Positions 9,365 to 15,885 are shown, counted from the first letter of the stretch. The stretch: 62,410 nt of DNA from Candidatus Heimdallarchaeota archaeon (GCA_016840095.1 JAEOSZ010000001.1:1-62410); one strand, 5' to 3'. Translations and numbers: made by a program. The notes: generated from the letters alone by a model not told the origin.

Positions 9365-9646
9365 TTAAGATATTGGTACAAAATCCTTAGATAACATCTT
9401 ATTAATCTCTCGTTGAGGAATCTCTTTGCTCCTAAGACCTGCAATAAAGACGTTAAGGCAATCTTTGCAATATACTTTCTTTAATCTTGTATTGTAAGTT
9501 AGTGGAGACATAAATTTACTTTTACCACAAATATCACATCGATCTTGAATACCTGCAGTTATATCAGCAGTGCAATCGGCACAGTAGTTAGCTTTCTCTG
9601 AAACAGGTCTTCCGCATTTAGCGCAAAAACGTACTCGTGTAACCAT
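9365..9646 (-). CDS. Small zinc-ribbon / zinc-finger protein
   Basis: Four CxxC pairs. Likely start ATG 9646 (ORF track 9670). Confidence 0.75.
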   Translation of the reverse strand: MVTRVRFCAKCGRPVSEKANYCADCTADITAGIQDRCDICGKSKFMSPLTYNTRLKKVYCKDCLNVFIAGLRSKEIPQREINKMLSKDFVPIS

Positions 9647-9706
9647 AGTATCCGAAAGTCTCAATATCAATATTTTAAACTTGTGGAACTACTAGATTGT
9701 GGGAAA

Positions 9707-9900
9707 TATGTACACACTCGCCCCTTGGTTTCTATTGGAGAAGTGTATATTTGTACATATTATCATGGTATATGTACACATGTTATTTGTACATAGGTCT
9801 GGATTAAACTAAAAATTTAATTATATAAATGTTTCTATATTTAATTAGAAAAAAAGTTATTCTTTAATATAAAGAGTTCTACTGGAAGAAATGGGGTGGG
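9707..9900. promoter_or_regulatory. Candidate replication origin element A: inverted ORB-like boxes flanking an AT-rich DUE, plus four TGTACA boxes
   Basis: ORB-like TCTCCAATAGAAACCAAGGGG (- strand, 9721-9741) and GTTCTACTGGAAGAAATGGGG (+, 9876-9896). 9803-9873 has 6 G/C in 71 nt. TGTACA at 9709, 9752, 9773, 9788. Confidence 0.7.
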
Positions 9901-10016
9901 AGAGACATCTGCCTTACAAATCTGAGATATTACTTACCTTTTTAATGGTTTATCACTAGTCTAACATGATATCTATATTTATAAACGTAAATCGATGAAG
10001 TATAGTAAGTAATGAA

Positions 10017-10478
10017 GTGAGTATTATGCCTAAAGAGGTTACAATTAAACTCCCTGATGGGACAATAATAAGAATACCTTCTGGAGACACAGAGAGTCTT
10101 AAAACAACACTTGCTTTAGTTACAGGAAAATCTGAAGGATCAAGCTCAACTGATGAAGAAAGAGAGCAACAAAAGATTACCAGTATTAATGATCTTATCG
10201 GAGCTTCAAAGATAGAAAGAGTTGCAAGTATAATTCGAAACCATTATCCTGAAGGAGATTGGTTTACATCTAATGAAGTATGCGAATTGTATGAAATAAT
10301 ATTCAGGGAAGGGGTAAAGATGAGTACAGTTAGCACTTACCTGTCTAGATTAGCAGATGAGAATATGCTAAATAGAAAAGGGAGTGTATCACAGAGATTG
10401 TATTCAGTTACAAAGAAATTATTAGAACTCTATGGAGAGCTTAAGGTTCTTGAAATACCAGCAGATCTCCTAAAATAA
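10017..10478 (+). CDS. Winged-helix DNA-binding protein
   Basis: WFTSNEVCELYE...MSTVSTYLSRLADENMLNRKG...RLYSV wHTH pattern. Confidence 0.8.
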   Translation: MSIMPKEVTIKLPDGTIIRIPSGDTESLKTTLALVTGKSEGSSSTDEEREQQKITSINDLIGASKIERVASIIRNHYPEGDWFTSNEVCELYEIIFREGVKMSTVSTYLSRLADENMLNRKGSVSQRLYSVTKKLLELYGELKVLEIPADLLK

Positions 10479-10520
10479 CTGTTTTATTGCTTCTAGTGGA
10501 GCGAAATATGAAATGAAAAT

Positions 10521-10620
10521 ATCTTACCACACAAAATAATTTTCTTGTGGTAAGATTCTTTTATGTTCTTTCCTTTCTCTCAATTTATCTTACCACGTAC
10601 TTTTTTTTTTCTGTGGTAAG
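10521..10620. repeat. Two copies of the inverted repeat ATCTTACCAC...TGTGGTAAG
   Basis: Arms start at 10521/10546 and 10587/10612: same 25-nt offset, 66-nt period. Confidence 0.9.
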
Positions 10621-10688
10621 TTATTCCCTTTCCTTTCGCTTTATTGTGTTTTCAAAAAAAGTAGTTCTCCCCTTCCCTTCTTTTCTTC

Positions 10689-13089: not shown

Positions 13090-13257
13090 TTATTCACCTT
13101 AAGAAATTACTACTTTAAGTATGATTGAATCCTACAATAATGGTAGTTATTTAACTATTACTCTCAAAAATCATATAAAATTACAAGGAAAATGTAGAGT
13201 CCTTTGTAGTGAGTTATTATCACTTATTTTTAGCTTAAACCTTAATTAAACCTAATG

Positions 13258-13695
13258 ACTTCACAAATCTTTGTGAAGTGTTCTACTGGAAATACTTTCA
13301 AAGTTAAGAATTCTGCTCTCTTTTGACCTATAAACACATTCACATGTTGTGAACAGCCCAAAACTGCAGATATTGTAGTTTTCCAGTGGAAATGAAGGGG
13401 TCTGTTTTTCTCATTCACAAAAGAAGGTATTTCACATAAAGTAGTAATGTGGAGTGTAAGATTTTTTGTCGTAACTAAAAGTCTGTTCACAAGGTTTTAG
13501 AAAAACAGTGAACTGAATATTAACACTGATTCACTTGATCCCTGAGGATAGCAAAACAATTAAAAACAATGTCTAGGGAGTTTTTAGTAAGAAAGTGAAG
13601 CTGTTGTGTCTACTGTGTATGGTGTATTCATTGCGTATTACATTATTTTGTGAAAAGTAGTGAAAAAATGTAATACTTGAGTATTACATTATTTT
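13258..13695. promoter_or_regulatory. Candidate replication origin element B: ORB, mini-ORB, TTCAC(A/T) and GTATTACATT repeats
   Basis: TTTCCAGTGGAAATGAAGGGG at 13380-13400, GTTCTACTGGAAA at 13280-13292, long non-coding region ~1 kb upstream of cdc6. Confidence 0.8.
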
Positions 13696-13747
13696 CTCCC
13701 TAAAATTGATTATCAAAAAGAGTAAAGAAAGAGGAAATGAAATAATA

Positions 13748-14095
13748 CTAGACAAAATCAATATCATCCAGCGTAGAAGTTAATCTTTTACGTTTCCTTT
13801 CAAGTTCTTTGATGTTGGTACCAACTGAAATTCTATCTTTCATACCTGCTGGTACTTTTCTACCAAGATATTTCGAGAACTTATATTCAGGTTCTAACCT
13901 CAAATAAAAATAAGGTCCATGCAAAGCTTTAGGACTCTGTTTACATTTACAGCTTTCTCTACCACATTTAATGTATTTCGTACTAATGAAGCCAAATAAT
14001 GGATCCTGTTGTGATAGAGATTGAATTTGATTTTCAATATCCTTTATAGCATCCAGTAAATTGATTTTAGCTTCGTTTATTTTATTAACTGACAT
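13748..14095 (-). CDS. Small Zn-binding basic protein (DUF6788-like)
   Basis: CGRESCKC...HGPYFY...KYLG motif flanked by coiled-coil helices. Confidence 0.7.
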   Translation of the reverse strand: MSVNKINEAKINLLDAIKDIENQIQSLSQQDPLFGFISTKYIKCGRESCKCKQSPKALHGPYFYLRLEPEYKFSKYLGRKVPAGMKDRISVGTNIKELERKRKRLTSTLDDIDFV

Positions 14096-14225
14096 TTTGA
14101 GACAGATATTTATACTTTCATCATAAAAAAATATTAGATATTACCCCGATATTCTCCCGATTATATTGAGCTATTTATTCGACATAAATCCTCTAAACAT
14201 GTAGAAAATCCGACAAAGTGATAAA

Positions 14226-14540
14226 ATGCAGCAGAGTAAGAACTTGCTAACTAAAAAAATAAAGGAAAAATCTCCTATAGAAGGGGTTGTTATTAGTAGT
14301 CGTCGTGTGTATGTTTACTCAGACGCAGTTGATCAAGAAATAGAGTTAGAAAATCTATTGATCAATTTACTTCAGGAACATGGACCTCTTACCAGAAATG
14401 AACTCGTAGCATTGACCCATATCCCACGATCAACCCTCTACGATAACCTGGCTAAAATGATATCTAAAGGAGTTATTGAGAAAGAATCAGTTCCACGAAG
14501 TACTAGAGGAAGACCTAAAGTGTTATTCAAACTAGCATGA
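14226..14540 (+). CDS. TrmB-like winged-helix transcription factor
   Basis: GPLTRNELVALTHIPRSTLYDNLAKMISKGVI...RGRPKVLF. Confidence 0.85.
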   Translation: MQQSKNLLTKKIKEKSPIEGVVISSRRVYVYSDAVDQEIELENLLINLLQEHGPLTRNELVALTHIPRSTLYDNLAKMISKGVIEKESVPRSTRGRPKVLFKLA

Positions 14541-14652
14541 TAATAGTCTAGCTTTCTCTTAAATTAATTCGTAAATGTGATAATTGTTTTAGTCAACATC
14601 TATCGACAAAGTTAAACAATGGTTACAAAAGTACAGCTTCACTAGCTAAGAG

Positions 14653-15885
14653 ATGAAACTAATGGAAGAAGAAAATAAAACAAATATCGACGATATATTT
14701 GACAAATATCTTGATGCAGACACAAAAATCTTTGCAAATAGAGAAGTATTAAGCCCTCACTATGTGCCAGATGTTCTTCCTCACAGAAATGATAAATTTG
14801 ATGAATTAGCAAAAATTATAGCTCCATCCTTAAAAGAAGGATCTCCTTCTAACATATTTATTTATGGAACTACAGGGACTGGTAAAACAGCAGTAACAAA
14901 ACAAGTTTTAACCAGGTTAAAGAAAAGCGCTGAAGTAAGAAAATTATCATTCAAATATAGTTATATGAATTGTCAGCATGTAGATACAAAATATAGAGTT
15001 TTAACACAATTATGTGAGGATATTGGAATAGATGTTCCATTTACAGGTTTACATTTCGACGTTATTTATCAAAAATTCAAAGAAGCACTAGATAAGCTAA
15101 ATACACTTCATATTACAGTTCTAGATGAAGTAGATATGTTATACAAGAAGAGCTCTGAATCATTATATGTTTTAACTAGAATGAATAGTGATTTAGAGTC
15201 ATCAAAACTTAGTATTATTGGAATTACAAACGATGTTAATTTCAAAGAAACACTTGATCCTCGAATACGCAGCAGCTTAAGTGAAGAAGAAATTGTTTTT
15301 TCACCTTACACAGCTGAACAACTCAAAGATATTCTTACACAAAGAACTGATGTAGCATTTCATAAAAATGTTCTAGATTTTGGTGTTATTAATCTATGTT
15401 CAGCAATTGGAGCACAACAACATGGAGATGCTAGAAGGTCTTTAGACTTGCTTCGTGTAGCAGCTGAGTTAGCAGAAAGAAATGGTGATGAAAAAGTTAC
15501 AGAATTACACGTAAGGAAAGCACAACAAGTAATTGAAAGGAATACAGTCATTGAAGTGCTTAGTTCTCTTCCAATTCAAACAAAAGCTGTGTTACAATCT
15601 ATCTTCATCGGAGAAGGGAAATCTGAAGAAATAACTACTGGAGACGTTTATGAGATTTACTCAAAGATATGCAAACTCGTTCGACTTGATATCTTAACAG
15701 CTCGACGTGTTGGTGATTTAATCAATGAACTAGATATGTTAGGGATTGTTACAGCTCAAGTAATAAGTAAGGGAAGATATGGTAGATCGAAAAGAATTCA
15801 TCTTACAGTTCCTCACAGACAAGTTAGAGAAGTTTTAGAAAAAGAGTTTAGATTAACTAAGATATTCGAAATGGAAGATATTTGA
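14653..15885 (+). CDS. cdc6: Orc1/Cdc6 replication initiator
   Basis: LPHR, IYGTTGTGKT, VLDEVD, GDARRSLDLLR, C-terminal wHTH with SKGRYGR. Confidence 0.97.
   Translation: MKLMEEENKTNIDDIFDKYLDADTKIFANREVLSPHYVPDVLPHRNDKFDELAKIIAPSLKEGSPSNIFIYGTTGTGKTAVTKQVLTRLKKSAEVRKLSFKYSYMNCQHVDTKYRVLTQLCEDIGIDVPFTGLHFDVIYQKFKEALDKLNTLHITVLDEVDMLYKKSSESLYVLTRMNSDLESSKLSIIGITNDVNFKETLDPRIRSSLSEEEIVFSPYTAEQLKDILTQRTDVAFHKNVLDFGVINLCSAIGAQQHGDARRSLDLLRVAAELAERNGDEKVTELHVRKAQQVIERNTVIEVLSSLPIQTKAVLQSIFIGEGKSEEITTGDVYEIYSKICKLVRLDILTARRVGDLINELDMLGIVTAQVISKGRYGRSKRIHLTVPHRQVREVLEKEFRLTKIFEMEDI

Follow-up and report, generated by a model that had tools for sequence, protein, structure and literature searches.

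At oriC1 of Sulfolobus and Saccharolobus, two origin recognition boxes (ORBs) flank a duplex-unwinding element (DUE) in the order ORB3-DUE-ORB2 and are bound by Orc1-1, while the ucm motif is bound by UBP (PMC12141716). UBP is encoded away from the origin and has >300 chromosomal binding sites (PMC12141716). In the Thermococcales, oriC has a second ORB cluster within dp1, the two clusters lie within 5 kb, and Pyrococcus Cdc6 binds both in vivo (PMC1904270). Among the other Sulfolobus origins, oriC3 is associated with the protein WhiP, whereas oriC2 has mixed initiator sites (PMC3607249). Here we describe a 62,410-nucleotide stretch of DNA from a Candidatus (Ca.) Heimdallarchaeota archaeon (GCA_016840095.1), hereafter called the window, that very probably holds the chromosomal replication start region of a Heimdall-group (Asgard) archaeon. 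Asgard archaea are the closest known relatives of eukaryotes. In the searchable literature, we found no account of how Asgard replication origins are built in cis or of which accessory factors they use, and no paper on Asgard ORB origins or DUF6788.

The window is an entire contig (C3, 62.4 kb) of a 3.44-Mb assembly in 165 contigs with 33% GC content, which is 7.8% contaminated. Protein matches place it in the family Heimdallarchaeaceae, in the genus of the metagenome-assembled genome 'Heimdallarchaeota archaeon AB_125'. Three Orc1/Cdc6 paralogues are encoded in the genome: the main one in the window and the others on contigs C95 and C152. Two clusters of short motifs occupy intergenic gaps on the upstream side of the main cdc6 gene, with Module A 1.0-1.4 kb and Module B ~4.8 kb ahead of its start. 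We consider it probable that this is the main Orc1/Cdc6-dependent origin locus of the chromosome, with Module B as its core, Module A as an accessory platform, and inserted passenger genes between them. As such, the locus belongs to a known kind of element, here predicted with good support and in an unusual split architecture. An initial annotation, made from the window alone, had proposed an origin beside cdc6, and that proposal is upheld by near-unique canonical ORBs, a layout kept in 17 genomes of the genus, and a strand switch in a relative. The elements of the two modules and the initiator gene are as follows.

9671-10025: gap 1, which contains Module B
9707-9795: four TGTACA boxes bracketing the left ORB, TATGTACACA at 9707 and 9771 and TTTGTACATA at 9750 and 9786
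9719-9742, minus strand: left ORB CTTCTCCAATAGAAACCAAGGGGCG, a degenerate dyad with G-string that matches the loose pattern
9797-9872: AT-rich putative DUE, 88-92% AT, holding the conserved ATTATATAAATGTTTC at 9820-9835
9876-9899, plus strand: right ORB GTTCTACTGGAAGAAATGGGGTGG, matching the strict pattern
13090-13747: gap 2, which contains Module A
13260-13277: palindrome TTCACA-N6-TGTGAA
13280-13292: mini-ORB without G-string
13339-13354: second TTCACA/TGTGAA palindrome
13381-13401, plus strand: full ORB TTCCAGTGGAAATGAAGGGGT, matching the strict pattern
13635-13688: three GTATTACA boxes
14653-15885, plus strand: orc1/cdc6 initiator gene (Pfam Cdc6_lid and Cdc6_C)

Full ORBs are nearly confined to this locus. 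The strict pattern, which combines the core dyad (TTCCA-N-TGGAA) with a G-string, has three matches in 3.44 Mb (at 9877, at 13381 and on contig C147) and none in five Markov-3 simulated genomes that served as controls. Five matches to the loose pattern occur genome-wide, three of them at the locus, with ~1 expected; this pattern adds the left ORB of Module B (9719-9742, minus strand) and one further site. The 12-mer common to both ORB regions, GTTCTACTGGAA, has exactly three copies in the assembly, all on contig C3. The ORB-like boxes first annotated in two intergenic regions ~3.5 kb apart are all present where they were placed, as is their shared 12-mer. A degenerate box at 10491, TTCTAGTGGA, had also been counted as an ORB and is rejected here, since it lacks both a G-string and conservation within the genus. 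The third copy of GTTCTACTGGAA (55884-55895, with GGGAAGGGGT just before it) falls within a 735-aa Eco57I-type N6-adenine methylase gene (54572-56779) and is probably there by chance. At ~1290-1400 of contig C147 (4.2 kb), in an intergenic region beside a tRNA gene, the full ORB TTTCCATTGGAAACTGGGGGG occurs together with the mini-ORB TTTTCCAATAGAAATC; this pair could belong to a second origin or to an integrated element, or be contamination.

Module B (9707-9900) contains two inverted ORBs with their G-strings facing outward, flanking a tract with 88-92% AT in 50-bp windows. Module A does not have this design, and therefore it is Module B that matches the essential design of Sulfolobus oriC1. 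In an alignment of gap 1 across the genus, the ORBs and a central ATTATATAA(A/G)TNTTTC are invariant, the latter being recognisable in genera g10 and g13 as well. The C-string and TTTC..TGGA core of the left ORB are kept in 15 genus sequences, the right ORB (9876-9899) is kept across the genus and the family, and two TTGTACATA boxes are invariant across the genus. The TGTACA cluster is the densest in the genome, with four boxes in 100 bp where 0.02 are expected. In genera g10 and g13, as at the loci L120 and L143 of other lineages, the left ORB is adjoined by TGTA(C/T)A boxes. The resemblance to oriC1 lies in the inverted dyad and G-string ORBs around an AT-rich element, as found near orc1-1 (PMC12141716), and, by analogy, in the short non-ORB motifs within or beside the core, which presumably serve a separate small protein. 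Unlike oriC1, the core in the window is 4.8 kb from cdc6 with genes between, its extra motifs are TGTACA and the central TATATAAATGTTTC, and candidate accessory proteins, a winged-helix protein and a DUF6788 protein, are encoded in the locus itself, in contrast to UBP. Module B is thus the most likely initiation site: one Orc1 monomer would bind each inverted ORB on either side of the AT element, and MCM would be loaded there as at Sulfolobus oriC1.

Module A (13258-13690) has one full ORB and a mini-ORB, with no inverted pair of full ORBs, and its AT content is at most 78%, against a genome mean of 67%. Besides the two palindromes, it contains eight more TTCAC/GTGAA boxes. Its TTCACA cluster (eight in 450 bp, 0.27 expected, next best four) and its GTATTACA cluster (three in 100 bp) are the densest of their kinds in the genome. 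The mini-ORB, the full ORB, the TTCACA/TGTGAA palindromes and half-sites, TTTTTTGYCG and CGTATTACA are all invariant in an alignment of gap 2 across the genus. Among the repeat families of the initial annotation, the TGTACA, TTCACA and GTATTACA clusters stand, being the genome's densest and conserved in 17 genomes of the genus and, beyond it, in further Heimdallarchaeaceae genera. We rejected a non-coding RNA as an explanation for Module A: there is no Rfam match at E <= 1, and the fold z-score is -2.0 on both strands, as is expected of DNA palindromes. A scan for sigma-70 promoters and intrinsic terminators, features that are irrelevant to archaea, gave no enrichment. As in the Thermococcales, two ORB/mini-ORB clusters lie within ~5 kb near cdc6 and only one of them has an unwinding region (PMC1904270). 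The second cluster of the Thermococcales lies within dp1, across cdc6 from oriC, whereas that of the window occupies an intergenic gap, shares its side of cdc6 with the core, and is surrounded by a dense TGTGAA array of a kind absent from the Thermococcales. With about a dozen TTCAC/GTGAA half-sites, two pairs of them palindromic, and no DUE, Module A is probably a docking platform, at which a second sequence-specific factor would be held alongside additional Orc1.

We infer which module unwinds, and which protein binds which site, from this arrangement, and the roles of the two modules could be exchanged. Initiation would then occur at Module A, downstream of whose ORB the DNA would unwind, and Module B would be a dormant origin or only a control region for the adjacent gene, which encodes a 150-aa winged helix-turn-helix (wHTH) protein. 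Module A carries the best consensus ORB, TTCCAGTGGAAATGAAGGGGT, it is the closer of the two to cdc6 in the genus, and a very AT-rich stretch follows its ORB in the genus Ca. Heimdallarchaeum. Module B, moreover, is always immediately upstream of the wHTH gene where the two were seen together (in genera g1, g10 and g13; the arrangement was not seen in the single g12 contig examined). We nevertheless regard this exchange of roles as unlikely, because the AT content of Module A stays within 78% in the source genome, the ORB-DUE-ORB design that is essential in Sulfolobus (PMC12141716) is matched by Module B, and, downstream of the right ORB, the wHTH gene is provided with a conserved TATA region of its own.

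A synteny comparison bears on whether the modules are parts of one origin. Seventeen genomes of the genus keep both modules and the gene order Zn ribbon, gap 1, wHTH, M42 aminopeptidase, gap 2, DUF6788, TrmB-like, cdc6 and amidohydrolase, and both gaps are recognisable but relocated in three other Heimdallarchaeaceae genera. Module A is kept in g10, g12 and g13 with changed neighbours and orientation (it is inverted in g10). Ca. Heimdallarchaeum has 6 kb and unrelated genes between the modules, with the Module B unit inverted relative to cdc6 and Module A directly upstream of the gene for the DNA polymerase subunit PolD DP2, 10 kb from cdc6. Both modules keep their internal syntax despite these changing neighbours, which argues for autonomous cis elements over promoters tied to individual genes. 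In the complete Ca. H. aukensis genome, the platform of ORB and TGTGAA boxes ahead of DP2 is at ~1,976,800-1,977,300 (L053:2790-3290). The window has its own DP2 gene at ~28.3 kb, and the short gap upstream of it has no ORB.

In other lineages (loci L143 and L120), a single gap runs from cdc6 through a mini-ORB, an ORB on the minus strand, an AT-rich tract and an ORB on the plus strand, and continues through TTCACA-N4-TGTGAA, a TGTGAA box with an ORB on the minus strand, and further TGTGAA boxes to the wHTH gene. Judged by its motifs, this gap is Module B followed by Module A, as contiguous halves within ~900 bp. The contiguous layout suggests that the window holds one origin locus separated by inserted genes and not twin origins. 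The modules would once have been contiguous, with the wHTH and M42 genes now between them. Family f5, from a second order of the class and represented by complete genomes, has the order TrmB-like (minus strand), an 820-bp gap with an ORB and TTCACA boxes, wHTH, TrmB-like, DUF6788, cdc6 and PolD DP1. In one of these genomes, cdc6 is closely preceded by two mini-ORB-like boxes, ATTCGAGTGGAAAT and TGCTATTGGAACG (L146:7396-7430), which suggests initiator autoregulation in that lineage. No ORBs were found upstream of cdc6 in family f3.

The initial annotation had left room for a twin origin, in which Modules A and B, 3.4 kb apart, would fire separately. Both modules do carry a full ORB with G-string and are conserved, three Orc1/Cdc6 paralogues are encoded in the genome, and the modules of Ca. 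Heimdallarchaeum are well separated by unrelated genes. However, inverted ORBs around an AT core are found only at 9707-9900, Module A having neither an AT-rich unwinding tract nor an inverted full-ORB pair; the counterpart of Module A at L143 and L120 is the flank of a single origin region; and two origins a few kilobases apart would be functionally redundant. Twin firing is improbable on this evidence, and we continue with a single split origin. Nothing that we observed speaks to the segregation role which the initial annotation also raised.

Because the source assembly is in 165 contigs, strand composition was examined in Ca. H. aukensis (3,081,793 bp), which, like Ca. H. endolithica, is a member of the Heimdallarchaeaceae with a complete genome, using forty 20-kb samples and one continuous 522-kb stretch. 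The global cumulative GC-skew minimum, from the forty samples, is at 1.93-2.0 Mb, and the orthologous locus is at 1.977-1.988 Mb. In 20-kb bins of the 522-kb stretch, GC skew at third codon positions (GC3 skew) is negative in 11/13 bins to the left of the locus and positive in 12/13 to the right, with per-gene means of -0.035 and +0.030, respectively (Mann-Whitney p = 3.5e-5). The local cumulative GC3 minimum, at 1,980,000-1,985,000, falls between the modules and cdc6, and gene orientation changes across the switch from 98 plus and 121 minus to 116 plus and 74 minus. The relative shows this sign change of GC3 skew within a 100-kb zone that contains the locus, which bears on the skew check proposed in the initial annotation. 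One outlier bin at 2,031,001-2,051,000, all plus-strand coding with a GC3 skew of -0.16, shifts the absolute cumulative minimum and may be a giant or foreign gene.

The strand switch also bears on whether there is an origin here at all. If the clusters were operator arrays for the small regulator genes, the ORB-like boxes would mark Orc1 acting as a transcription factor, a role reported for Sulfolobus Orc1 paralogues (PMC12490963), and TCGACA boxes of the locus do resemble promoter elements. Such an explanation is very unlikely given that full ORBs are nearly unique to the locus, that the structure of Module A is constant while its flanking genes vary, that strand composition switches in the zone with the orthologous locus, and that Module B has the inverted ORB/DUE design. 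Capture of Module B with the wHTH and Zn-ribbon genes as an extrachromosomal replicon, as proposed for Sulfolobus oriC3/WhiP, would account for a compact unit of origin-like element and DNA-binding gene that is inverted relative to cdc6 in Ca. Heimdallarchaeum, but it is very unlikely when the Module B ORBs have a 12-mer in common with Module A, Pfam gene calls reveal no integrase or other mobile-element gene, the unit is single-copy and syntenic across the family, and the wHTH family stands beside chromosomal cdc6 in distant lineages.

The genes around the two modules, in addition to cdc6, are the following.

7521-9353, plus strand: FtsX-like permease gene
9365-9670, minus strand: double Zn ribbon protein gene (Pfam DZR_2, 30.2 bits), probably starting at the ATG at 9646
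10026-10478, plus strand: gene for the 150-aa winged-helix (wHTH) protein, without a Pfam match
10479-10688: gap with two palindromes, between convergent genes
10689-11822 and 11956-13089, minus strand: two M42 aminopeptidase genes (Pfam)
13748-14095, minus strand: DUF6788 protein gene (Pfam PF20586, 43.7 bits)
14226-14540, plus strand: gene for the 104-aa TrmB-like wHTH protein (Pfam TrmB, 29.2 bits), directly upstream of cdc6
15941-17257, plus strand: amidohydrolase gene

The M42 pair is a 1267-bp tandem duplication (10656-13189) marked by the direct repeats D1-D3 at a spacing of 1267 bp, and the two products have 75% amino-acid identity. Genomes of the genus have one or two M42 copies, some with an extra 2.4-kb insert at this place, and the M42 genes are passengers that separate the two ORB modules. 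The gene calls of the initial annotation hold, with Pfam matches for the Zn ribbon, DUF6788, TrmB-like and Cdc6 proteins and a winged helix in the 150-aa protein from AlphaFold2 and Foldseek. That annotation had treated the four small proteins as dedicated origin factors. The wHTH, TrmB-like and DUF6788 genes do look dedicated, recurring by cdc6 and ORBs in a second order. The Zn-ribbon gene does not fit, and we rejected its product as an origin factor: the gene stays beside the FtsX-like gene in four genera, even where 2.5 kb separates it from the wHTH gene, so that its link to the origin is doubtful. An FtsX/MacB-type permease gene, like that at 7521-9353, also occurs a few kilobases from a cdc6-wHTH region in an unrelated metagenomic lineage (L140:6672-8414).

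The AlphaFold2 model of the wHTH protein has one C-terminal winged-helix domain and a small N-terminal part of low confidence. Its best Foldseek matches are generic MarR/ArsR/PadR-type regulators (E ~2e-3), no Pfam family scores above threshold, and its recognition-helix segment STVST.L.R is invariant. A profile search returned 369 clusters. Five of seven informative contexts of the family adjoin orc1/cdc6 across a long gap, and members stand beside cdc6 and ORBs in unrelated metagenomic lineages as well. In families f3 and f4, however, the homologues are located behind a gatE-like gene and have neither an ORB nor a box array, and therefore the linkage to origins is not universal. In the Heimdallarchaeaceae, the TGTGAA array is detached from the wHTH gene, which is located instead on the ORB-DUE-ORB core. 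Like oriC3 and oriC2 of Sulfolobus, the locus combines a locally encoded winged-helix protein with sites for more than one factor (PMC3607249). WhiP-type initiators are defined by tandem winged-helix domains homologous to Cdt1, whereas the 150-aa protein is modelled with a single winged-helix domain and shows no detectable similarity to Cdt1/WhiP. Given that the locus offers ORBs to Orc1, an accessory role is more likely for this protein than that of initiator.

The TrmB-like protein scores 29.2 bits against TrmB, where the cut-off is 25.6, and 26.8 bits against HTH_24, where it is 21.9; its NCBIfam matches to Lrs14 and Sta1 are below their cut-offs. Its orthologues in the f5 cdc6 cluster have 48-49% identity, and it has no detectable similarity to the wHTH protein. 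The DUF6788 protein scores 43.7 bits against PF20586 (cut-off 27.2), with invariant C44, C49, C51 and H59-G-P-Y (CxxxxCxC...HGPY). In its AlphaFold2 model, with a confidence (pLDDT) of 89, a helical hairpin bears a CCCH zinc knuckle at its tip. Foldseek returned nothing at E <= 0.001 for this model, and VIA-align returned only helical-hairpin look-alikes (Z <= 9.7), within the background for helical models. The gene is single-copy in families f1 (27/30) and f5 (20/22), in both of which it adjoins cdc6, and it was absent from the other four families sampled. The NCBIfam and PHROGs libraries added nothing firm.

Two further repeat families of the initial annotation did not survive as origin elements. 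The first is a 36-bp palindrome, of which two copies lie between convergent genes in the gap at 10479-10688. Across the genome, it has nine copies with fixed spacing and a variable AT-rich centre, ATCTTACCAC-N16-GTGGTAAGAT(TC), mostly 40-130 nt past stop codons.

10521-10622: two copies of the 36-bp palindrome ATCTTACCAC-N16-GTGGTAAGAT
C57:6786, C57:9447, C78:2614, C78:3225, C121:6805, C152:2704 and C152:28561: the other copies
14603-14617, plus strand: TCGACAAAGTTAAAC, conserved promoter-proximal element of cdc6, invariant in the genus

This dispersal, mostly <100 nt 3' of stop codons, led us to reject the palindromes as origin, centromere or fork-barrier sites; they may be terminator-like or REP-like elements or the operator of a regulon. 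The second family, YCGA(C/T)A, reduces to two TCGACA boxes, at 14179 and 14603, as the only members invariant in the genus. CCGATA and CCGATT reduce to conserved GATATT units, and CCGACAAAG is confined to the closest relatives. The two TCGACA boxes are 47 and 50 nt ahead of the TrmB-like and cdc6 start codons, respectively, where by position promoter elements would be expected. The TCGACA-type element of cdc6 is also present in g12 and g13, and partly in g10.

Several points weigh against a main origin with Module B as core and Module A as platform. The skew switch in Ca. H. aukensis is broad (1.90-1.99 Mb), its zone includes a second Orc1 paralogue at 1,898,522, and it cannot resolve the modules, which are <10 kb apart in that genome. 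The raw GC skew of the window is dominated by the coding strand and is hence uninformative, and the left ORB of Module B is degenerate. It is only in the presence of ORBs that wHTH homologues are preceded by arrays of four to six TGTGAA boxes, the others having zero or one box, so that the boxes track the origin and not demonstrably the wHTH protein. In the Heimdallarchaeaceae, moreover, the wHTH gene adjoins Module B, whose boxes are TGTACA and not TGTGAA. To our knowledge, replication data (marker frequency or chromatin immunoprecipitation) exist for no Asgard archaeon.

The wHTH and TrmB-like proteins are both candidates for the binder of the TGTGAA boxes. Either of these locally encoded proteins would be the best candidate for the second factor at Module A, which presumably tunes origin firing, initiator supply or both. 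It is possible, if somewhat doubtful, that origins in Heimdallarchaeia and other Asgard archaea are subject to a second, conserved level of control, made up of the TGTGAA array and its ORB together with the wHTH family, the TrmB-like protein and DUF6788. Dedicated, origin-encoded, sequence-specific proteins would then cooperate with or gate Orc1.

The locus provides a testable map, consisting of a putative ORB-DUE-ORB core, a separate platform for Orc1 and TGTGAA boxes, and three small initiator-linked genes that recur across orders. If the small proteins act at the origin, this lineage would have a layer of origin control beyond Orc1, and a first function would be at hand for DUF6788 and for a winged-helix family of 369 clusters that has no Pfam match.

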